This document shows, piece by piece, positions 10,043-64,000 of a DNA stretch of 64,000 nt. Both the position numbers and the translations under genes were made by a program. Position 1 is the stretch's first letter, and each line of letters opens with the position of its first letter. The notes beneath the pieces were generated by a model. That model saw only the letters and a program-made list of their open reading frames with translations. It was not told the DNA's origin and searched no databases. Origin of the DNA: Escherichia phage vB_EcoP_EcoN5; sequence record MN715356; one strand, given 5' to 3'.

Positions 10043-13000
10043 ATGGCTAACATTAAACCGTGGGAAGAAGCTTCCAAAGCTCCTGCGTATCTGAATGCCT
10101 CTCCGGAGCAGCAAGCTCAAATGAGAGAACAATATAAGGCAGCAGGTGGCTCTATTCCTGAGGAACAGCCAGTAGCACAACCACAACAAGAAGAACGTGG
10201 TGTTATAGGTGAGTTTGCTCAAGGTGTGTCAAATGCTCTTCAATCTGGTGGTGCAAATATTGCAGCTAGTGCTGCTAAAGGTATTGGTGGTTTAGTTGAG
10301 ATTGGTGAGAATCTAGCTGGAGCACAAACTAGTTATGGTAAGCGTATCCAAGAGAACTCTCAGAACCTTCTGAAAGAACGTATGGATAAGATTGAGGATG
10401 GGATTGGTAAAACTGCTGGGCAATATGCTGGTGTTGTTGGTGATATTGGTTTGACTGTTGCTAACCCGTTAGCTGCTGCTGCTATCATCGCAGGTCGTGA
10501 GACAGGTCGTGCATATGCAGACCAAACTCCTGAAGAGGGAGAAGATAAGTCTATTCTAGATGCAGCCTTAGTTGGTGGTGCTAACTATGCGGCTCAGAGA
10601 ATCCTTCCAGGTGCTGTCGGTACAGCTGAGTCCACACTTGGACGTATTGGTCAGAACGTTGCTAGTAACGCAGTGGCTGGTGCTAAAGGTGGTGCTCTTG
10701 TAGGTGCTGCTGAAGCTCAGAACAAGCATGGAGATGATACAACCTTTGCTAATGTGTTAGAGGGTGCTATCGAAGAAGGTGCTATGGGTGCTGCATTTGG
10801 GGGTGCAGTTGGTGGGGTTCATGGTTTGATTAGCCGTCCGGATTCTGCTGTCTTCAAGAACACTCCAGAGTATGCGAAGACTGATATTGCTGCTGATGAT
10901 GAACTGATTCGTAGTGCTAAGAACGTTGATGAACTGAAAGAAGCCTACTCTAAAGCTGATACTGCTAACGCTGCTTCTGCTCTTAATCTTCTGGATGAGA
11001 ATGGATTCCGTATCACAGATGCTGTTGCTGTAGATTCTCCTGCTGCCCAGCGTATTCTTAATACAGACCAAGCTCGTGCTGAGAAAGCTGCTTCTGCTCA
11101 GAAAGATCACTCTAACATTCCGGGCCTCAATCCTTTAGCTGCTCCTTCTAAGACTCGTGGTAAAGCATTCGCTGATAATGAGCACAACCAGAAACAGGCT
11201 GTTGCTATGAAGGATGCGATGGCTGACTACACCAAGGATAACACGAAAGCTCTTACAGATGTTCTAGACAACCTAGATCGTGAATTAACTTCTCTTAGAG
11301 CATCTGGGCACTTCACCGGTAGTCCACTTGACGTTAAGAATCGCACACAAGCTGACCGTGATTTCATTGATGCTTACAAGACTTTCTACAACGAGGCAAA
11401 TCGATTCAAAGCTCGTGATGGTGAAGACTTTAACAACTTTGTAGAGAAAGCTGCTGAGCTACAGAAGATGGCTGATAATGTTTCTCCAGAGATGAAGAAA
11501 GCTATTGGTGGGCTGAAGAAACTGAAAGGTATGCCTGAAGGTTTTAATCCTATTCAAGATGCTTACACTCTGAACAATACAGCTAAGTTCATGAGCAACC
11601 AAGATCGTGGTTGGACTTCCCTGACTGATGATGGATTCCGTGAGGCTTCTTCTCCTAGTCTGGTTATGAACACACTCGGTGCTGCTAAGTATGCTCTGAA
11701 TCGCTTCTCTTCTCAGCGTGCTCGCTCTCAACGTGTTAAGCAACAAGAATCTAACAGTGAAGCTATCCGCTCTCTGGCTCGTGGTGATTTGGAAGTTGCT
11801 CGTGCTAAGTCCACTGCTGATGAAGCTCGTGCTAAAATGGAAGAAGAACCAGTTGTTGATGACATTAAATTTAAGACGCAAAATGACGTGGAAACCGAAC
11901 CGGTTCGGGAGCCTTCTTCTAGTACTGTGACGGAAGAAAATCTTCCTTCTTCTAATCCTCAAGAAACTCCTCTTACGGCCCGTGATTTGGTTGCGCAAAG
12001 ACGTGCTATCCGTCAGGCTGAACAGCGTCGCGCTGAAGAAGAGGCAGCGGCTGCTCAAGAAACTCCGGTTGAACAGGCTCCACAGGCTGAACCCCTCCCT
12101 GCTCGTAATCCTTTAGAGGAACGTCGTGCAATGGAACAGCAACGTGCTCAAGAAGAGACCGCACAGGCTCCAGAACCAGCTGTAGAGGAACCAACAGTCA
12201 AAGCTGAGCCATTACCTGCCCGTGCTCCTAAAGCTCCTCAGGAAGCTGTACAGGATGTTAAACCGGAAAGTGGTGTAGAATTCCTAGCTGCTATGTCAAG
12301 CACTGCTCGTCAAGTTGCTAAAGATCGTGCAACACGTTTTGCTAAATCTTTATACTCTAAGGCTGCTAAAGCTAAAGCTACTGCTGAAAACTTCTTGGCT
12401 TACAAGGGAGACCCTTTGGAGTTGATGCGGCGTATTCGTCGGGAAGATAATGCTATCAACACTGAACGTCATGAAGAAATGGCTCGTAACCAGCTGGCTT
12501 CTCAGCAAGGTATTGCTACTGCTAAGAACAACACTGTACGAACTAATTTTGCTGAATGGGTTAAAGAACGCGGTCTACCAGAAGACATTGCTACTAAGGC
12601 ATTACGTGCTGAAGAGAAAGGCTTAGGTGGGAACGTAACTAACTTAGATAGTCTGAAACGTCGTGCTGAAAGGTTGTATCAGAAGCAGCGTGAGGATGAG
12701 TTTGACAGGTTATATAAAGAGGCTCTGGAAGAGAATAAAGCTTTCGATAAGAGAGATGCTCCTAAACTGGTTGACCAGAAGAAAGAGCTTCAGTCTGAGA
12801 TTGACACTTTAATTGATTCAGAACCTTTACGTCCTGCCCAGAAAGATGCTATGCGTAGACTGATGAATGATTATGTAGATGGGAAGTTTAAATCTTCAGA
12901 GAAGGCTGGTAGGGAAGAGGCTTTGGAAGTTGGTCAGATGAAGGATATTTGGGATGGGTTTATTAACACCTATAACAGAGAAGTGAATGCCTTCAACAAA

Positions 13001-46860: not shown

Positions 46861-48057
46861 TTATTTTCCTAAAAATAATCCGCTCATGACACCATCCCAC
46901 TCAGAGGAAGGAATCACTGAATACTCCGAACTTTGGTCCAGAGTCCCACTACTAAATCGCTGAACAATGTTGTAGATGTTGAACAGGTCTTTAGTCTCGG
47001 CACGAATGCCGTAGATTAGCCTGTTAGCTGTTTTCTCATTTTTAGACACGCGACGGGTAAAGTTAACCAAAAGATTATCACCTTTAAGTATCTCTGACCC
47101 ATCTTTTACTAGATCGGGGTGCATCACTGGCAAGAACATTGAGTTGTTAACTCGTAATTCTGCTGTTTCATCATTCTCATAATGAATCCACTTAAAGTCT
47201 TCATCACGGAAATGACCACACCCATCTCTGTATGACTGTTGACGCCAAGGAACTTGAAATGCTTCAGAGTGTTTATCAGCCATGCCGACTGTAAACAGCG
47301 ACGCTGGGAAGATACAAGCATCCCAATCATTACCAACCAGAGTTGCTTTCGTTTCCCCTAAGAGGTTAGTGTAAGTGCTAACCATTCGTGAGTAAACGTA
47401 AGCCTGAAGAATTGTCCAGCCTTCAACCAACCATTTATGAAGGAAGGTTTCAACTTGACTCTCTTCATCTTCGCAATAGAAGGTTCTATCTAACATTAAA
47501 TAGAACAGACAACGATCAGCAGGAACATTCTCAGTTGCTACCCCCATAAAGCCTTTCTCGTGCCAGCGTAAACAGGAGGGACGATCTTTGTCCACAAATG
47601 CTTCCATAGCTTCCAGTACAGCACGAGGTGTGGTTCGATATTCAGGGTTTTTGTCGTTCCAACGATCAATGTTATTCTTAGGAGGTGTGTCTTCATCTTC
47701 ATACGAACACCAACTTAAAGCTTCAGCTACGTGCTTTTCATCACGCCAGCGTCTAAAACCTAACATCTTCATGTGAGTTCCGGAGTTCCAGATATGCTTG
47801 ATTTTACACATATCCATCTCTCGGCTTAACAGGAATTCTTCCCCATCAGCACTACGAACGTTAGCCTCTTCATGCCACACTCGAACGTGCATATTCCACC
47901 CATGAGTTGCCTCATACATGTTAGGGTCGAAGTATTCATCTTCGTCATCATCTTCATCAACGCCACCGTTATAGTTGCGAAGCTGAAGGAACCCATAACA
48001 AGGAGGGTTGACCGTTAAAACATTACCTTCAGTATCTTCTAATGTTACTGGAAACAT
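46861..48057 (-). CDS. hypothetical protein; first 54 codons lie inside the duplicated segment
   Basis: 398-aa ORF with acidic N-terminal 'DEDDDEDEY' stretch. Confidence 0.4.
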   Translation of the reverse strand: MFPVTLEDTEGNVLTVNPPCYGFLQLRNYNGGVDEDDDEDEYFDPNMYEATHGWNMHVRVWHEEANVRSADGEEFLLSREMDMCKIKHIWNSGTHMKMLGFRRWRDEKHVAEALSWCSYEDEDTPPKNNIDRWNDKNPEYRTTPRAVLEAMEAFVDKDRPSCLRWHEKGFMGVATENVPADRCLFYLMLDRTFYCEDEESQVETFLHKWLVEGWTILQAYVYSRMVSTYTNLLGETKATLVGNDWDACIFPASLFTVGMADKHSEAFQVPWRQQSYRDGCGHFRDEDFKWIHYENDETAELRVNNSMFLPVMHPDLVKDGSEILKGDNLLVNFTRRVSKNEKTANRLIYGIRAETKDLFNIYNIVQRFSSGTLDQSSEYSVIPSSEWDGVMSGLFLGK

Positions 48058-48068
48058 TATACCAACCT

Positions 48069-48431
48069 CTATTGGTTTTTAATCAACTCAATCGACTTAC
48101 GGATATAAAGAATATCTCGGAAGTTTCGATAGTTGTTCATAAATTGGTGCTTCTGGAAAGTAGCTTCTTCCAGAGCTTTCTTTGCTTCTGCGTAATTTTT
48201 ACGGGCAAGATGTACAACCCGCTCTGGTAACACATTTGCACGACGGATGATATACTTGTGAGCTTTCATGTTGCTTTGCTCACGAGCAATCTTACATTTA
48301 GCAACTTTGATACCATTTGCAATCCAAGCAAGTTCTTGCTCAAGCTCATCGTTGGACATTCCACCGAGATTTGATGCAACCTTGTTCAGAGTTTCAATAT
48401 TAACGTTGCCCTTAATGGGACGTGTATTCAT
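48069..48431 (-). CDS. hypothetical protein (copy 1)
   Basis: 120-aa ORF, basic, helical; duplicated at 49587-49949. Confidence 0.4.
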   Translation of the reverse strand: MNTRPIKGNVNIETLNKVASNLGGMSNDELEQELAWIANGIKVAKCKIAREQSNMKAHKYIIRRANVLPERVVHLARKNYAEAKKALEEATFQKHQFMNNYRNFRDILYIRKSIELIKNQ

Positions 48432-48433
48432 AC

Positions 48434-48586
48434 TTACTCCTGTTGTTTACACTCGTCAATAACCCACTGATAAGTGGATTGCCCAGAAAAGAAACACTGA
48501 ATAAATCCAGATGTTCTCTGCGTTACCAGTGCTAGTGCACAAATCACTACCGCTGCTGCTAGCAGTTTTAAATCTAATTTAGACAT
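48434..48586 (-). CDS. small membrane / signal-peptide protein (copy 1)
   Basis: Hand-translated ~50-aa ORF 'MSKLDLKLLAAAVVICALALV...' with RBS GAGGAAAT; below track cutoff. Confidence 0.3.
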   Translation of the reverse strand: MSKLDLKLLAAAVVICALALVTQRTSGFIQCFFSGQSTYQWVIDECKQQE

Positions 48587-48823
48587 ATTTCCTCTCATTG
48601 AATTTAAAAAAGGACTCTCCGAAAAGAGCCAAGCTTTAAATCCAAAAAAAGATATTACCCAATATCTGTGGATAACCTGCTCTTAAAATATCTATCCGAC
48701 GGATGTTTGAGGAACACTCCTCTCCCTAGCATCGGCCCCATACGGGAAATATATTAAGATTAGGTTAGTTGAGTCAGAATAACTCACATAGCCCTCCGAG
48801 GAAGGCTATAGGTGTTACTACAA

Positions 48824-49039
48824 CTAAAAATCACCTGATTTTACAAAATCATCACTAAGAATTTCGTCAATCTCTTTGCTAGTCAAATCTTTCCTGAACC
48901 AGCAACAAGGTACATCCACCCATTGACCAGAGTTGTTTTCTACAGAGCATCTATTGCCTGTCTTACTCTTGCACTTATAGGTTTTACCTTTGTCTAGACG
49001 GTAGTGTATTCTGTAAACGATCGACACAAGTGTTATCAT
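48824..49039 (-). CDS. Cys-containing small protein (copy 1)
   Basis: 71-aa ORF with 'CKSKTGNRC...PCCW'. Confidence 0.35.
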   Translation of the reverse strand: MITLVSIVYRIHYRLDKGKTYKCKSKTGNRCSVENNSGQWVDVPCCWFRKDLTSKEIDEILSDDFVKSGDF

Positions 49040-49272
49040 TACTCGCCTTTCTTAGCACGATCTTTGGCAGTTTTGCCAGTGCGGATGCGATGGGAAACGT
49101 TAACCAGAGTGCCACCATCAACTACGGTAACGCTCTTGTTTTTAGCCAGATCGAACACAGTTTTCTCCGTGCCACCCAAGCGAATTTGCTTAGGCTCACT
49201 GAAGGTTTGGGTTGATTTAGATTGGAACTGAAACGGTTGACGGATTGCATCAATTGCACTTACTTTAGACAT
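49039..49272 (-). CDS. hypothetical protein (copy 1)
   Basis: 77-aa ORF preceded by hairpin and conserved motif. Confidence 0.4.
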   Translation of the reverse strand: MSKVSAIDAIRQPFQFQSKSTQTFSEPKQIRLGGTEKTVFDLAKNKSVTVVDGGTLVNVSHRIRTGKTAKDRAKKGE

Positions 49273-49586
49273 AGTGGAAATTCCTTAAAAAGTTATGGCT
49301 GCGTAGAGGGAATTCCCTACGCAAATTGGGCCGCCTAAAAAGAGGCGTCATAGTACTAAAAGGAGGAGAGAAGAGGGCTTATTTAGCTACCTTTTTCTGT
49401 CCGTTTACAAACCCCACCCATGAGTTGCCTCATACATGTTAGGGTCGAAGTATTCATCTTCGTCATCATCTTCATCAACGCCACCGTTATAGTTGCGAAG
49501 CTGAAGGAACCCATAACAAGGAGGGTTGACCGTTAAAACATTACCTTCAGTATCTTCTAATGTTACTGGAAACATTATACCAACCT

Positions 49587-49949
49587 CTATTGGTTTTTAA
49601 TCAACTCAATCGACTTACGGATATAAAGAATATCTCGGAAGTTTCGATAGTTGTTCATAAATTGGTGCTTCTGGAAAGTAGCTTCTTCCAGAGCTTTCTT
49701 TGCTTCTGCGTAATTTTTACGGGCAAGATGTACAACCCGCTCTGGTAACACATTTGCACGACGGATGATATACTTGTGAGCTTTCATGTTGCTTTGCTCA
49801 CGAGCAATCTTACATTTAGCAACTTTGATACCATTTGCAATCCAAGCAAGTTCTTGCTCAAGCTCATCGTTGGACATTCCACCGAGATTTGATGCAACCT
49901 TGTTCAGAGTTTCAATATTAACGTTGCCCTTAATGGGACGTGTATTCAT
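49587..49949 (-). CDS. hypothetical protein (copy 2, identical to 48069-48431)
   Basis: Identical translation. Confidence 0.4.
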   Translation of the reverse strand: MNTRPIKGNVNIETLNKVASNLGGMSNDELEQELAWIANGIKVAKCKIAREQSNMKAHKYIIRRANVLPERVVHLARKNYAEAKKALEEATFQKHQFMNNYRNFRDILYIRKSIELIKNQ

Positions 49950-50341
49950 ACTTACTCCTGTTGTTTACACTCGTCAATAACCCACTGATAAGTGGATTGC
50001 CCAGAAAAGAAACACTGAATAAATCCAGATGTTCTCTGCGTTACCAGTGCTAGTGCACAAATCACTACCGCTGCTGCTAGCAGTTTTAAATCTAATTTAG
50101 ACATATTTCCTCTCATTGAATTTAAAAAAGGACTCTCCGAAAAGAGCCAAGCTTTAAATCCAAAAAAAGATATTACCCAATATCTGTGGATAACCTGCTC
50201 TTAAAATATCTATCCGACGGATGTTTGAGGAACACTCCTCTCCCTAGCATCGGCCCCATACGGGAAATATATTAAGATTAGGTTAGTTGAGTCAGAATAA
50301 CTCACATAGCCCTCCGAGGAAGGCTATAGGTGTTACTACAA

Positions 50342-50557
50342 CTAAAAATCACCTGATTTTACAAAATCATCACTAAGAATTTCGTCAATCTCTTTGCTAG
50401 TCAAATCTTTCCTGAACCAGCAACAAGGTACATCCACCCATTGACCAGAGTTGTTTTCTACAGAGCATCTATTGCCTGTCTTACTCTTGCACTTATAGGT
50501 TTTACCTTTGTCTAGACGGTAGTGTATTCTGTAAACGATCGACACAAGTGTTATCAT
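50342..50557 (-). CDS. Cys-containing small protein (copy 2)
   Basis: Identical translation to 48824-49039. Confidence 0.35.
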   Translation of the reverse strand: MITLVSIVYRIHYRLDKGKTYKCKSKTGNRCSVENNSGQWVDVPCCWFRKDLTSKEIDEILSDDFVKSGDF

Positions 50558-50790
50558 TACTCGCCTTTCTTAGCACGATCTTTGGCAGTTTTGCCAGTGC
50601 GGATGCGATGGGAAACGTTAACCAGAGTGCCACCATCAACTACGGTAACGCTCTTGTTTTTAGCCAGATCGAACACAGTTTTCTCCGTGCCACCCAAGCG
50701 AATTTGCTTAGGCTCACTGAAGGTTTGGGTTGATTTAGATTGGAACTGAAACGGTTGACGGATTGCATCAATTGCACTTACTTTAGACAT
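50557..50790 (-). CDS. hypothetical protein (copy 2)
   Basis: Identical translation to 49039-49272. Confidence 0.4.
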   Translation of the reverse strand: MSKVSAIDAIRQPFQFQSKSTQTFSEPKQIRLGGTEKTVFDLAKNKSVTVVDGGTLVNVSHRIRTGKTAKDRAKKGE

Positions 50791-51021
50791 AGTGGAAATT
50801 CCTTAAAAAGTTATGGCTGCGTAGAGGGAATTCCCTACGCAAATTGGGCCGCCTAAAAAGAGGCGTCATAGTACTAAAAGGAGGAGAGAAGAGGGCTTAT
50901 TTAGCTACCTTTTTCTGTCCGTTTACAAACCAGATAATCGAACCGTCAGGCTGTCGTTGACCGAAGCCTTTTTGGTTAATCATATCGTCATAAGAATATG
51001 CTTTACGTCTCATTTGTTTTC

Positions 51022-52070: not shown

Positions 52071-52113
52071 ACATTCTCCAATTAAACGTTTATATAAGAC
52101 TTGCTTAGATAAA

Positions 52114-52159
52114 GATTCAATAAAATAGGGGGAGGGGACGAATCCTCCCTTATCCTATT
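52114..52159 (-). terminator. rho-independent terminator (extended hairpin)
   Basis: AATAGG...GGAGG/CCTCC...CCTATT nested hairpin followed on the minus strand by TTTTATT. Confidence 0.4.
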
Positions 52160-52684
52160 AATTAATATTACATGTAAGATCTAACAATCGGATGCCTTTG
52201 TAGGAATAAGCATTATGCTAATCCAGCACTAAACTCCCGCCCCCTTAGTGGGCTGGGTTATTAAAGGGTAACGCCCTTATGGGCTAGTTACGTGAATGTT
52301 AGTTTGATAGGAGATCTGAAGTCCTATCTCAAAGGACTCTCGTAAGAATCCTTCACGATATTACTTATTCATCTCTCGTCGGCTATCTCTCCAAGCCAAC
52401 CAAGTGTAGATTTTCAACTCTTCTAAACTTTCTGGAGTGAATAGGTATTCTTTGAAGGTGTCACTAAACCACTCTAAAAATTCTTCAGTCATAATAACCT
52501 CTTAGCAAGACTGATCACATGGCTGATCACCACATGTCTTACAGATCACTGGAGAGTAACTACAGGCAGGATACACTGACACACCATCCCATGTCTCACA
52601 CCCACAGTCAGGACATGTGCCGTTAGATTCCATGTCATCATCGTCGTCTATTTCACCGCCACCAAAACAACTCATACAGGCTCC

Positions 52685-53433: not shown

Positions 53434-53509
53434 TGGTGCACCCTACAGGACTCGAACCTGTAACCAACGACTTAGAAGGTCGCTGCTCTGTCCATTGAGC
53501 TAAGGGTGC
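53434..53509 (-). tRNA. tRNA-Arg (anticodon UCU)
   Basis: 76-nt cloverleaf: acceptor GCACCCT/AGGGTGC, D-stem GCTC/GAGC, anticodon stem GCGAC/GTCGT with loop CTTCTAA, T-arm ACAGG-TTCGAGT-CCTGT, encoded CCA. Confidence 0.85.
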
Positions 53510-54895: not shown

Positions 54896-54930
54896 TAAAA
54901 CAACAAAGGCCACCCGATTGGGCAGCCTTT
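54896..54930 (-). terminator. rho-independent terminator
   Basis: AGGCTGCCC-AATC-GGGTGGCCT hairpin followed on the minus strand by TTGTTGTTTT. Confidence 0.45.
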
Positions 54931-55434
54931 CTCTATTAACTGTTATATGTCCAATTACCTTGCTTGTTACGGATGGCTGACATTGCATGAATCCAGAAGC
55001 TTTCAAGTTTCAGAGCACCGTTAGCTACTGCATCCATACGTTCAGGGCGGTTCATACGTTTGGTTGATACTTTCATACCTATCTCTCTTTGTTAGTGGAG
55101 GCATTATTGCCAGTTGATATAAGGGATAGCCCTAGTCAGTAGACTAATTCTGACCGCGTACTCATTGCCGACCTTCTCTGCCTAAGAGTTCAGGTTCTAG
55201 AGCTATCTCTTATTCCAACTGGTGAAGACCTCCTACCCCTAGGAGATCTCCCGAATCCCAAACCAATACGTACCCCTACGTAGTGGGAAGTCTACCGAAA
55301 TTGAACAGGTTTTAGTCTAACACCGGATGTTCGAGCAAGCTCTCCCTAGCGGTGCGGCATATGCCTGATTGATGTAGTTAATGAGGAACACCCTCACATA
55401 GCCCTCTGATAAATACAAGGGCTATAAGTCGGTG

Positions 55435-55653
55435 TTACTTTTGAGTCAAACACAAATCAGGACGGGGCATAACAGTGGTTGACAGATTGAACACACCAAT
55501 GTAGCCAGTTCTCAGATTAGCTGCCTGACGCAAACCATCAGGAGTCTTATCCTCTAGCATCAGCCAGAAGCATTTATCGTAAGAGAAAACATCACCACCC
55601 TTAACATCTTCTGCATTTGCATATTTAGGATAATCAACTACTTTAATTTCCAT
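55435..55653 (-). CDS. small protein, GDVF/VNLxTG paralog family
   Basis: 'KGGDVFSYDKCFWLMLEDK...ANLRTGYIGV'. Confidence 0.4.
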   Translation of the reverse strand: MEIKVVDYPKYANAEDVKGGDVFSYDKCFWLMLEDKTPDGLRQAANLRTGYIGVFNLSTTVMPRPDLCLTQK

Positions 55654-59342: not shown

Positions 59343-59364
59343 AAAAAGCCGCTCAAAGGCGGCT
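59343..59364 (-). terminator. rho-independent terminator
   Basis: AGCCGCC-TTTGA-GCGGCT hairpin followed on the minus strand by TTTTT. Confidence 0.5.
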
Positions 59365-59444
59365 ATGCGGAAGCTTCAAATGGGGAGAGGGCACGACGCT
59401 ACAGAAAGAGCGTCATAGTACTAAAAGAGGGGGCTATATTCCTA

Positions 59445-59888
59445 CTACTTAACCCTTGCTTCTTTGATGGGGTCAATGTATTTTTCAACTCCCCACTTGT
59501 GTTTACTATCTGCGTAGAAAACATCAGGAGCACACTGACTTGTCTTAGGAAATGCCTGAGGGTCTTTCGTGCTACCTTTAAACTTCTGTTTACCACGGGT
59601 GCGACCATTACAGAAGATTTCTAACTTCTTCTCCTCTTCTGTTTTAGCTCCCCCGCTCTTTAACAAAGAACGTTTATGATCGGCTAACAATAACGCATCA
59701 GCACGATGAACACGATGGCCTACACGCTTTGCCACACTAGAAGGAATATGGGATTCAGCTTCAGCCTTTGCAGCACGACGTTTTAAACTGCGCTTGCTGA
59801 CGTGATTGGTTGCCTTTGGCTTCTCTTTCTCCAGTTCAGAGATAGAAAAACAACGCCCGCCCTTCATGCTGATTTTTGATTTAGCCAC
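59445..59888 (-). CDS. basic protein, function unknown
   Basis: 147-aa Lys/Arg-rich ORF. Confidence 0.4.
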   Translation of the reverse strand: MAKSKISMKGGRCFSISELEKEKPKATNHVSKRSLKRRAAKAEAESHIPSSVAKRVGHRVHRADALLLADHKRSLLKSGGAKTEEEKKLEIFCNGRTRGKQKFKGSTKDPQAFPKTSQCAPDVFYADSKHKWGVEKYIDPIKEARVK

Positions 59889-61623: not shown

Positions 61624-62527
61624 CTTTCAATTGTAAGGGCACTATGCCCCGCTCTCTATGAGCTTTTTAAGTCACTATTGACTTATCTATAACCACTCAC
61701 TTTTTAAGTAGTCATAGGTAAGTGGGGCGGTCTTATCAGGAGTTAACCTTGCCGCCCCCTTATCCGTGATGTTTCATCTGGTATCTTTAATTAGTCGCTA
61801 TAAACGAAGCCGACCTGACAGCGATGATCAATCATCACAATAAGGCTATGCGTCCGACTCTATTTAATTACATTGCTGTAACCGTCGGCAATATCGTCCA
61901 CTTTGTTTTCGCTCCCGCTTATCCTTTTATATCAGCTCTCTATCGCTAGTCATCGCCCACTACGGGATACTATTGCGAAAGAGTCACTAACCGCCTAGTA
62001 TTCCGGCGTTTTATATCTTTCAGCAGGTTTACTACATAACCCGACTATGTACTTTCATCTTGTGATGAATCTCAAGCCGCTCACATCGTAAACGTTCGCA
62101 TTAAACCTTATTGTTAAATAGCAATTTGCCACTTTTTAACCACTCCCCGCCGCTCTCAATTGAGCGTTAATTAGTCGGGCTTGTCTACCCTGATTGACTT
62201 CTTTCACTGTAGCACCGTGTTAGCGATGGCCTCCGCTACCCTTAACCGTGGGCGATTAGCTTAAGCCGTTGCGTGTACTCAATGAATCCGTTTATCAGTG
62301 GTGACGTTTCCAGTAAGGGAATGTAAAACTGTTTACCCTGATAGTCTAGGGAGTTTTACGCCGTTTTATCTGGTATGTTTTCCGATGGTTATTATCGTCC
62401 AACATATTAAACCGATATAGGAGAATGTTTAAATTATTAAAGAGCGGTAAATCTGTCGAAGTGCTTTCTCACTTCCCGCCACCGTTCGCCGTGGTTTCGC
62501 GTTTCACTAGTTGCCTAGTGAGTGCTC

Positions 62528-62556: not shown

Positions 62557-63150
62557 CCGCTTTTTTAATCTTTTTCATCGTTCCCGCTATTGGGAGGATA
62601 TATCAATCAGCTATGTTTGATTGAAGATTAAGCGGCAAGGCTTAACTTATGATTCATATTTTTAAAGAGCGGTGTTTCTTATTACTAATCGTTAACGTTG
62701 TTTTGTTAACTTGTGGTTAGTATGAACTACTTTAACCACGTTTGCAATCTCTTTTTTATCATCTTCTTTTATTCCGTTCCCTTATCTCGCGTGAATCTAT
62801 GCGAAAGGGCAAGATGATAAGTCTGATTTGTCTTTTAGGAATCTAGTGCGCTTTCAAGCATCGACCATTTGAAAGTATCGAACAAATGAGGCTTATTTTG
62901 TTGCTCATCGTCCGCCTGTTCACGTATGAATCAGGAATCAATTCTAGCGGTCAACTAAGCGCCTTATAGTAATGACGTTGCCGCCACCTGTAAGACAAAT
63001 CATATTTTTAAAGAGCGTGCGGCTCACATAACACCGCTTGATAATCAGTTAACCTATGATTATTCAGGGGCATAGTATCCGCTTGCCTACGTCTGACTTG
63101 CTTCACTCACTAGGGAGTTACTTGAGCGGTCATCTTGTCTTTCTAAGCTC

Positions 63151-63179: not shown

Positions 63180-64000
63180 ACTCTTTTTAAGAATATTTTC
63201 ACTTTCTAGCCTGATTTTTAAAGAGCGGGGCAAGTTTCCTTGCCTTGTATGTTTTACATCGTACCCGATAGAAATGAGTATACGCCAATCAGTTGGGGAT
63301 GCAATAGGGTAAAGCAAAATATTTTAAACTTTTTCACTATGGGAAGGTAAAAGAGCGGGCGAACGTGATACATCATAGAAAACGGCTTGTAAAGCCATAA
63401 TAAGCGGCCTAAAACGCACTATAGCGAGCTAAAAGGGAGTAAGGAATACAATCACCTTAGAAAAGAAAAAAGCCCCATAAGGAAAGCAAGTACAACGCTA
63501 GCGCTACGGGTAGCAGACCAACATACCAAGACAAACGGGCAACATACAACCGCAGAATAGACCACGGGGAAACATGCCAGATAGTGCGGTAATAATATAC
63601 CACTTAAATAATTAGTTAACTATTAATAGCATTACTCAAACATCAAACGTTAAAAGAAAAAGAATAAAAGAACGCTGAAAAAAGAAAGAATAAAAAGAAT
63701 ATAATAACTGTTAATTACTATCATCCACTTAATTAATACATATATCATTATTACACTCATAATCATTACTATTGAAACTATTTACATTCAAACTGTGGGG
63801 AGCTGTGACTGTTACATGACGGTATTATTATCATGGTTATGAATGTGCCTATACTAGTTTATACAGTGCTGGCCTTTCTCCTACTCTTTAAAGGGGAACT
63901 AAATAAACGGGTAGGTAATGTAATAGATGACATATACGGGGAAAGAATAACGGGGAGTAGGCACGGGGAAAGGTGGAACGTTGAAAGGGAAGGTAAAGGC

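Follow-up and report, generated by a model that had tools for sequence, protein, structure and literature searches.

Escherichia phage phiEco32 is a model phage for the takeover of host transcription, via its sigma factor gp36 and its inhibitor gp79. Here we analyse a stretch of 64,000 nucleotides (nt) of Escherichia phage vB_EcoP_EcoN5 (sequence record MN715356), referred to as the window, and two families of conserved intergenic elements within it, Family A and Family B. Family A is a non-coding element whose sense strand folds into P1, P2 and a P3–P4 helix pair separated by a 7x7 internal loop. It is present twice per Kuravirus genome, as paralogous copies, and recurs in three phage families next to unrelated neighbour genes. 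An initial annotation of the window had described both families as motifs recurring upstream of minus-strand genes, with the look of shared regulatory sites or processing signals.

The early RNase III sites of phage T7 (R0.5, R1, R1.1 and R1.3, at positions that we take to be those of Dunn and Studier 1983) are intergenic in a long podovirus early operon with tandem strong sigma-70 promoters, as is the first hairpin of Family A, P1. P1 and these four processing hairpins fold alike, with a lower stem, an internal loop and an upper stem of ~10 bp. In both systems the hairpins lie right behind the upstream gene, and paralogues share the upper-stem sequence while differing in the loop. P1 does not resemble the T7 sites in sequence, and in contrast to them it makes up just the first quarter of a conserved fold that is much larger; its upper stem is nearly invariant across phage families, and its cleavage is putative. 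The putL and putR sites of phage HK022 likewise come as two sequence-related copies that are cis-encoded in early transcripts upstream of terminators and form stem-loops (PMC9378689). However, put measures ~70 nt and consists of two long stem-loops near the promoters, whereas the Family A module has ~125 nt, another topology and a distance of 7-14 kb to the promoters. A covariance model of the module (R1) finds no match at E<=10 in the complete HK022 genome and none in the examined T7 early region. Copy 1 of Family A has its own conserved terminator downstream, and binding of RNA polymerase is only conceivable for this element.

Small RNAs (sRNAs) derived from 3' untranslated regions or operons share the terminator of the mRNA, as does DicF from the dicB operon. 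Family A resembles such DicF-type sRNAs in having no promoter of its own, in a 5' end that would arise by processing, in a 3' end that would be formed by an intrinsic terminator with a U tail after a U-rich stretch, and in the conservation of single-stranded segments. It is much larger and more structured than these sRNAs, and as an accumulating RNA it is putative.

Results

Family A copy 1 occupies the spacer between the homologues of the phiEco32 genes phi32_91 and phi32_90 (48590-48823, minus strand) and is composed of P1, a three-way-junction domain and an intrinsic terminator. The 225-nt spacer is kept end to end in 102 phage records, including six Salmonella phages, mostly Moazamivirus (Grimontviridae), at ~70% identity. 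For 21 distinct copy-1 sequences (alignment A3), RNAalifold predicts a consensus fold with 56 pairs, and compensatory double changes occur in 11 of these. In this fold 99.3% of the cells are paired, compared to 36-51% after sliding the partners. The minimum free energy of the element is -75.9 kcal/mol (z -3.8) for the sense strand and -55 kcal/mol (z -2.2) for the antisense strand, and G.U pairs, whose counterparts on the opposite strand would be C.A, are numerous. Both observations favour an RNA read from the sense (minus) strand. As the spacer contains tiny open reading frames (ORFs) only, and as relatives carry frame-breaking indels of 1, 2, 4, 7 and 16 nt, it is non-coding. The Family A motif, CTCTCCCTAGC and a DnaA-box-like nonamer, which the initial annotation had treated as separate short sites, are instead parts of one folded RNA of ~230 nt with compensatory changes across three phage families.

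The motif CTCACATAGCCCTC...GGCTATA.GTGTTAC corresponds to the P1 hairpin (48778-48819, minus strand), as delimited by folding and pair counts, and its dimensions match those of the T7 early RNase III sites. In copy 1, the 10-bp upper stem of P1, UAUAGCCUUC/GGAGGGCUAU(G), is separated by an internal loop from the lower stem, GUAAC/GUUAU, which extends to the stop codon. The hairpin begins at or no more than 5 nt from the upstream stop codon, in an intergenic position within the early operon. Pairing in the lower stem is kept via one-sided changes, for example from G.U to A-U, and both-sided changes affect the outermost lower-stem pair and the top of the upper stem. The gap between the arms varies, giving a loop of 4-18 nt that is a C(UUCG)G tetraloop in some relatives.

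The three-way junction would be closed by a long-range helix between UAACCU (48762-48767, minus strand) and AGGUUA (48678-48673), for which RNAalifold pairs columns 70-75 with 167-172 of A3. The 3' strand belongs to AGGUUAUCCACA (48667-48678, minus strand) and overlaps the nonamer TTATCCACA (48667-48675). GGTTATCCACA is unchanged in 21/21 sequences, Salmonella phages included. The adjoining A/U helix (columns 81-84 with 159-163) contains 2 compensatory pairs. P2 is a hairpin CCC-GUAU-GGG (48737-48746, minus strand) with swaps from CG to GC in Moazamivirus and in copy 2.

The core (48696-48735, minus strand) comprises P3, the internal loop and P4, and holds CTCTCCCTAGC and GAGGAACACTCC. In copy 1, P3 is CCGAUG/CGUCGG and encloses the loop CUAGGGA (48723-48729) / AAACAUC (48702-48708), which is capped by the P4 hairpin (48709-48722). 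P3 has compensatory changes in 4 of its 6 pairs and adopts six distinct helix sequences across the lineages. The internal loop, with the 7x7 consensus CUAGGGR / RAACAUC, is invariant in Kuravirus, Moazamivirus and the metagenomic contig L039 described below. CTCTCCCTAGC spans the 5' half of this loop plus the final P3 pair and the initial bases of P4. The element ends with an intrinsic terminator, GGCUCU-UUUC-GGAGAGUCC followed by U6 (48607-48630, minus strand), which the terminator scan detects. Its stem and U tract are kept in 21/21 sequences, with G.U to A-U and compensatory changes, and it directly precedes the ribosome binding site (RBS) and the start codon (48598) of the phi32_90 homologue at an invariant position.

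Copy 2 is a paralogous module of ~125 nt (55314-55440, minus strand; nhmmer profile positions 5-131; R1 score 99.9 bits). The copy-1 profile matches the spacer between the phi32_113 and phi32_112 homologues over the first ~125 nt only. P1 of copy 2 (55384-55439) overlaps the stop codon of the upstream gene, P2 is GGC-AUAU-GCC (55356-55365), P3 is (G)CACCG/CGGUG(U), the internal loop is CUAGGGA/GAACAUC and P4 is a short GAG-CUUG-CUC hairpin. In the combined alignment of both copies (A5), 98.6% of the cells are paired versus 34-42% for slid partners, and 7 pairs are compensatory. The whole spacer (358 nt, 55077-55434, minus strand) adds ~230 nt with further conserved helices to the module, and its alignment (A4) contains 82 predicted pairs, of which 13 are compensatory. 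These ~230 nt (55077-55320) fold into hairpins that covary and whose G-rich loops are invariant, namely UAGGGGUA within CCUAGGGGUAGG and AGGGGU within GUAGGGGUAC. A like loop, GUAGGGGUA or CAGGGGUG, tops the terminal hairpin of the elements in Klebsiella phage Klyazma and L039. We found no conserved ORF in the copy-2 spacer, where ORFs have <=33 amino acids (aa) and indel lengths are non-multiples of three. A CCUCC stretch is predicted to pair with GAGAG of the RBS region.

The proteins flanking the element in Kuravirus and Moazamivirus are non-homologous, and the downstream neighbour in the six Salmonella phages is an endolysin. When the genomes are compared directly, nucleotide-level alignment is limited to the best-conserved core enzymes and this spacer, whose identity is 69-73%. 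The initial annotation had pointed to homologous positions in related genomes as the place where the motifs ought to recur; there the element is present and conserved like core enzymes. In the window R1 detects only the known copies, and it finds one copy per Moazamivirus genome. No R1 match was obtained in Privateervirus, Libingvirus, Crifsvirus or the examined fragment of Erwinia phage Pecta.

A pattern scan of bacterial assemblies led to the 48.7-kb contig L039 (JBOFGJ010000684.1), which is binned as Flavobacterium and whose proteins match Citrobacter phage CVT22 and its relatives (Zobellviridae, Citrovirus). It has a 58-bit R1 match with new P1 and P3 sequences (P3 AUAGCG/CGCUAU) and the same internal loop. 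Weaker members are located in early spacers of Klyazma and CVT22. An alignment of the earlier set with L039 and the Citrovirus member Klyazma (A6; CVT22 fell below the cut-off and was left out) has 98.3% of its cells paired and compensatory changes in 12/22 pairs; across the alignments 98-99% of cells are paired, compared to 31-51% in shifted controls. L039, Klyazma and CVT22 share a layout in which the module is followed by ~60-70 nt containing UAAGAG (UAAGAA in CVT22), a terminal hairpin and the RBS. In every member found, be it from Kuravirus, Moazamivirus or Citrovirus phages, the module is intergenic within the early operon. A further contig, L040 (CALKAR010000070.1), filed as a Peptococcaceae metagenome-assembled genome, gives an R1 match of Kuravirus strength (135.8 bits). 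L039 and L040, both filed under bacterial metagenome-assembled genomes, look like phage contigs.

A search of the whole window against Rfam 15 returned only matches to transfer RNA (tRNA)-Arg, and a permissive scan (E<=5) of 48400-49500 and 54900-55500 returned nothing relevant. ARAGORN detected no tRNA-like gene at the element, and PHROGs and Pfam assign only unknown function to the flanking proteins. A literature search for small RNAs or antitermination in phiEco32 gave nothing relevant in the literature covered, outside of which the main phiEco32 papers lie. Family A is a member of an apparently undescribed family of structured RNAs in enterobacterial podophages. CsrA-type GGA loops, an 11-nt tetraloop receptor, mimicry of 16S helix 45 and the phi29 pRNA were weighed by eye as candidates and dropped as unsupported.

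All motifs of the initial annotation are present and exact at their positions, and fewer copies are expected by chance, such matches being too rare in shuffled controls to account for them. The Family A core CTCACATAGCCCTC is found at 48783, 50301 and 55393, with 0.40 matches expected at <=2 mismatches and 0/100 shuffles reaching 3. CTCTCCCTAGC is located at 48720, 50238 and 55340, GAGGAACACYC at 48709, 50227 and 55383, and Family B GCGTCATAGTACTAAAAG at 49345, 50863 and 59410 (0.06 expected). Recurrence is real with a smaller number of independent cases, since the copies at +1518 (~50.3 and ~50.86 kb) stem from a perfect tandem duplication (47896-50931) and leave two independent copies per family. 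The units 47896-49413 and 49414-50931, of 1518 bp each, are 100% identical and have no microhomology at the junction. The duplication doubles the homologues of phi32_89, 90, 91 and 93 plus both motif spacers, giving an identical second copy-1 element (50108-50341, minus strand) and a second Family B copy 1 (50848-50884, minus strand), and a chimeric ORF is formed at the junction. It occurs in none of the related phage records listed for a 4-kb query, which span ~2.3-3.0 kb and miss the second unit; either it arose very recently or it is an artefact of the assembly.

In the direction of the genes, the motifs of both families start either at the stop codon of the preceding gene or a few tens of nt beyond it. 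Their description as lying upstream of minus-strand genes is right about the strand of the genes and incomplete about the position. The proposed shared module GAGGAACAC could not be upheld for Family A: it occupies non-homologous positions, being the P4 hairpin in copy 1 and the 3' strand of the P1 lower stem in copy 2. The resemblance is a coincidence, and the segment varies in relatives (copy-1 P4 loop).

The nonamer TTATCCACA on the minus strand is an exact, perfect DnaA box that stays unchanged in all 21 sequences compared, which come from phages of E. coli and Salmonella. It is a single box without a cluster around it, and it is not enriched: the window contains 24 matches at <=1 mismatch versus 18.8 expected. 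It is absent from copy 2 and has no counterpart in the sequence read of L039, Klyazma and CVT22. The cumulative GC skew follows gene orientation only and has no inflection near 48.7 kb. With one unenriched box, no inflection, and first bases placed in a predicted RNA helix, a replication origin at this site is unsupported. The variable length of the P1 loop, 4-18 nt, rules out a fixed dimer site. We detected no conserved -35/-10 pair, and indels of 3-16 nt lie between the candidate hexamers. The best candidate for a sigma-70 promoter is just a weak 9/12 match, CTGACT-18-TATATT, whose spacing is broken by 3- and 7-nt indels in relatives. The gp36 promoter tAATGTAtA (consensus from PMC8948821) and the late promoter consensus of phage 7-11, GTAAtg-16-aCTA, are absent from the elements.

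Judged by its sequence, the window comes from a phiEco32-like coliphage (Kuravirus); the 4-kb stretch around the elements has 94-96% identity to phiEco32 and ~95 other Kuravirus genomes. The local genes are minus-strand homologues of phi32_88 to phi32_124, the early gene cluster. Consensus sigma-70 promoters on the minus strand are found only at 63178-63151 (TTGACA-16-TATAAT) and 62556-62528. Three early promoters have been described in the corresponding spacer of the close relative SU10 and of phiEco32 (PMC4281155), and the two validated early promoters of Salmonella phage 7-11 both lie at the far right genome end (PMC8948821). Because the early promoters are confined to ~62.5-63.2 kb, the motifs of both families are placed inside a long early transcript that runs from high to low coordinates. 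This transcript must cross the terminator-like sites that the terminator scan reports at 59364, 59279, 54930, 52149 and 48630. A tRNA-Arg(UCU) gene (53434-53509, minus strand) is located between the two Family A copies, as in phiEco32. In another long early spacer, 52071-52360, there are several hairpins and a terminator (52149-52130), and visual inspection suggests a sigma-70-like promoter right behind that terminator; the spacer matches the module covariance model weakly (17.9 bits, E ~0.1).

Family B copy 1 (B1; 49330-49366, minus strand) is located downstream of the stop codon of the phi32_94 homologue and consists of the core UACUAUGACG (49346-49355) and a hairpin with the 5' arm (GA)CGCC(U). 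Copy 2 (B2; 59395-59430, minus strand) has the core UACUAUGACG at 59411-59420, the hairpin GACGCU-CUUUCUGU-AGCGUC, and a position just downstream of the phi32_120 homologue (59445-59888), with terminators following at 59364-59347 and 59279-59260. In the two spacers and throughout the Kuravirus lineages, the core UACURUGACG is invariant and is preceded by a pyrimidine-rich stretch. GACGC of the core forms the 5' arm of the hairpin, which follows in 10/12 sequences and has a loop that varies in size and sequence. Both copies are situated shortly past a stop codon and just upstream of terminator-like hairpins. Family B could not be detected in the Salmonella phages. It is a real and separate box that is restricted to Kuravirus, and we leave its role unassigned. 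As a promoter the core fits neither the sigma-70 nor the gp36 consensus, and use of RUG as a start codon would give peptides of variable length without a Shine-Dalgarno sequence or a conserved peptide. A fourth TACTGTGACG at 11923-11932 (plus strand) lies on the sense strand within a 1488-aa late ORF, with CCTTCTTCTAG before it and a small hairpin after it, and is probably due to chance.

Discussion

The description of these motifs as shared regulatory sites or processing signals holds in that both are conserved, apparently functional non-coding signals, and a processing role is plausible for P1 with its T7 RNase III site architecture. Our preferred reading of Family A, which we put forward tentatively and just short of an even call, is that of an early-transcript element that gives rise to a processed, terminator-bounded RNA and at the same time acts as an attenuator. 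The element would be transcribed within the long early minus-strand operon. P1, at the upstream stop codon, would serve as a processing site and as a 3'-stabilising hairpin that sets off the upstream mRNA; we infer an RNase III-type site from the arrangement of lower stem, internal loop and 10-bp upper stem, which is like that of the T7 early sites. In copy 1, cleavage at P1 together with termination would set free a separate, folded RNA with a length of roughly 190-230 nt. Polymerases reading past the terminator would express the downstream genes, and the same element would thereby attenuate them. In copy 2, the same module would head a structured leader of ~300 nt for the phi32_112 homologue.

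Several points weigh against this reading. The pairs of the predicted long-range helix UAACCU/AGGUUA are invariant, so that covariation cannot confirm it. Cleavage of P1 by RNase III is deduced from shape, and the near-invariant sequence of the upper stem is not an RNase III requirement. We could not find a promoter belonging to the element. The literature covered, which excludes Pavlova et al. 2012 and Savalia et al. 2008, contains no transcript-end or cleavage data for these positions. Since copy 2 has no terminator ahead of the next gene, a released RNA suits it less well than copy 1. In the Citrovirus members, the U tracts of the terminal hairpins are poor. Finally, the docking partner discussed next is a putative one.

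Invariance of the internal loop and conservation of the single strands hint at a conserved partner, for which these parts would offer a docking surface. Candidates are a protein of the host, the machinery of transcription or translation, or an RNA target. A bolder and rather unlikely extension is that P2-P3-[CUAGGGR/RAACAUC]-P4 constitutes an undescribed phage RNA class that docks on a host machine (RNA polymerase, Nus factors, ribosome or RNA chaperone) or binds a small molecule and so reprograms the early operon. If true, it would be a new RNA-based regulator that is horizontally shared among unrelated enterobacterial podophages.

The alternative that survives best, unlikely as we consider it, is a purely cis-acting leader or attenuator, either a riboswitch or a protein-dependent one, in which the 5' module acts as a sensor for a metabolite or for a conserved factor. 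It would control terminator read-through in copy 1 or access to the RBS in copy 2, and the terminated RNA would be a by-product. Copy 1 has the arrangement expected for attenuation, a conserved domain followed by an intrinsic terminator upstream of a gene. One and the same module is joined to two downstream platforms, the terminator right before the RBS in copy 1 and the predicted CCUCC-GAGAG pairing in copy 2. The order of module, ~60-70 nt, terminal hairpin and RBS recurs in L039, Klyazma and CVT22, and an invariant internal loop amid covarying helices is aptamer-like. However, inspection of A3 (Kuravirus and Moazamivirus) revealed no conserved antiterminator pairing with the 5' arm of the terminator, though no dedicated search was made; an AAGAGC/GCUCUU pairing is limited to Kuravirus. 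Module and platform are far apart, by 55-70 nt in copy 1 and by ~230 nt in copy 2. The downstream genes are wholly different between the lineages, so that they point to no regulated function in common, and even at E<=5 no Rfam riboswitch was matched.

For Family B, a described counterpart can be sought in the lambda nut and rrn boxA sites. In the manner of lambda nutR, Family B would be a nut-like, boxA-containing site that makes or keeps early elongation complexes terminator-resistant, and a small basic early protein such as the phi32_120 homologue might participate. As in nut and rrn boxA, each copy combines a conserved linear box with a hairpin, soon after a stop codon and just before terminators. 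B2 in the window reads ACGCUCUUU, which has 8/9 positions of the boxA core CGCUCUUUA. The gene directly upstream of B2, the phi32_120 homologue (59445-59888, minus strand), encodes a very basic protein of 147 aa with the arginine-rich stretch KRSLKRRAAKAEAE. In contrast to lambda nut, the invariant core UACURUGACG is not boxA and lies upstream of the boxA-like bases, which vary in relatives (CGCCUCUUUUU, CGCUUCUUUU, CGUUUCUCU); a conserved boxA core CGCUCUU(U)A is not found in Family B. The hairpin is missing in 2/12 sequences and its loop size is variable. The phi32_120 homologue is only a candidate antiterminator, and no N-like protein was identified; a search for homologues of gp120 gave only unannotated Kuravirus proteins and no annotated homologues outside Kuravirus. 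As the boxA-like bases are not conserved in relatives, we rate a nut-like function of Family B low and regard it as doubtful.

Exact boxA-like repeats are found elsewhere in the window, downstream of the early promoters, and match CGCUCUUUA. Four exact copies of CGCTCTTTA(A) are located on the minus strand at 62438-62446, 62663-62671, 63009-63017 and 63219-63227, with a variant near 63349-63357. Each lies ~40-130 nt downstream of a sigma-70-like early promoter, and 5 are observed versus 0.41 expected per window. The repeats are conserved in phiEco32 and 4E8, and one copy is present in the early leader of CVT22, Pecta, Klyazma and Cronobacter phage A24. They suggest Nus/boxA-type processive antitermination of the early operon, which has also been counted here in favour of a nut-like Family B. 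Their placement after each early promoter is an independent hint at processive antitermination in these phages.

It is quite improbable that Family A is ordinary operon punctuation, which is essentially what the shared processing signals of the initial annotation amount to. In such a scenario independent stabilising hairpins, RNase sites and terminators would have been spread by recombination, in the fashion of the promoter–stem-loop (PeSL) cassettes of T4. The resemblance of P1 to a T7 RNase III site fits, as does its C(UUCG)G tetraloop in some relatives, since CUUCGG hairpins are noted as common in phage intercistronic regions (PMC8948821). Family B lies where similarity between lineages tends to break and may, by this pattern, mark recombination junctions: the ECBP2 alignment of B1 ends just past the motif, and the 4E8 alignment of B2 begins just past it. 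However, punctuation leaves the invariant 7x7 loop, the conserved single strands and the covarying multi-helix junction unexplained, and also the 70% nucleotide identity across families with unrelated neighbour genes. Moreover, Family A shares a hairpin with the T4 cassettes, but the conserved early promoter that defines them could not be found alongside it.

A function at the DNA level, as a replication origin, as a site for DnaA or another protein, or as sigma-70 or gp36 promoters, could draw on the invariant perfect DnaA box, yet it is by far the most improbable reading, since the compensatory changes, the many G.U pairs and the much more stable sense strand point to RNA.

In the literature covered, the early operon of phiEco32 is described by its promoters, its temporal classes and a few predicted terminators only. 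A covarying fold that is conserved like core enzymes in three phage families and is not in Rfam suggests an unstudied layer of RNA in the control of early genes, or else a host-directed non-coding RNA of the phage. With a compact element, a clear invariant loop and a tractable coliphage, the question is directly testable.

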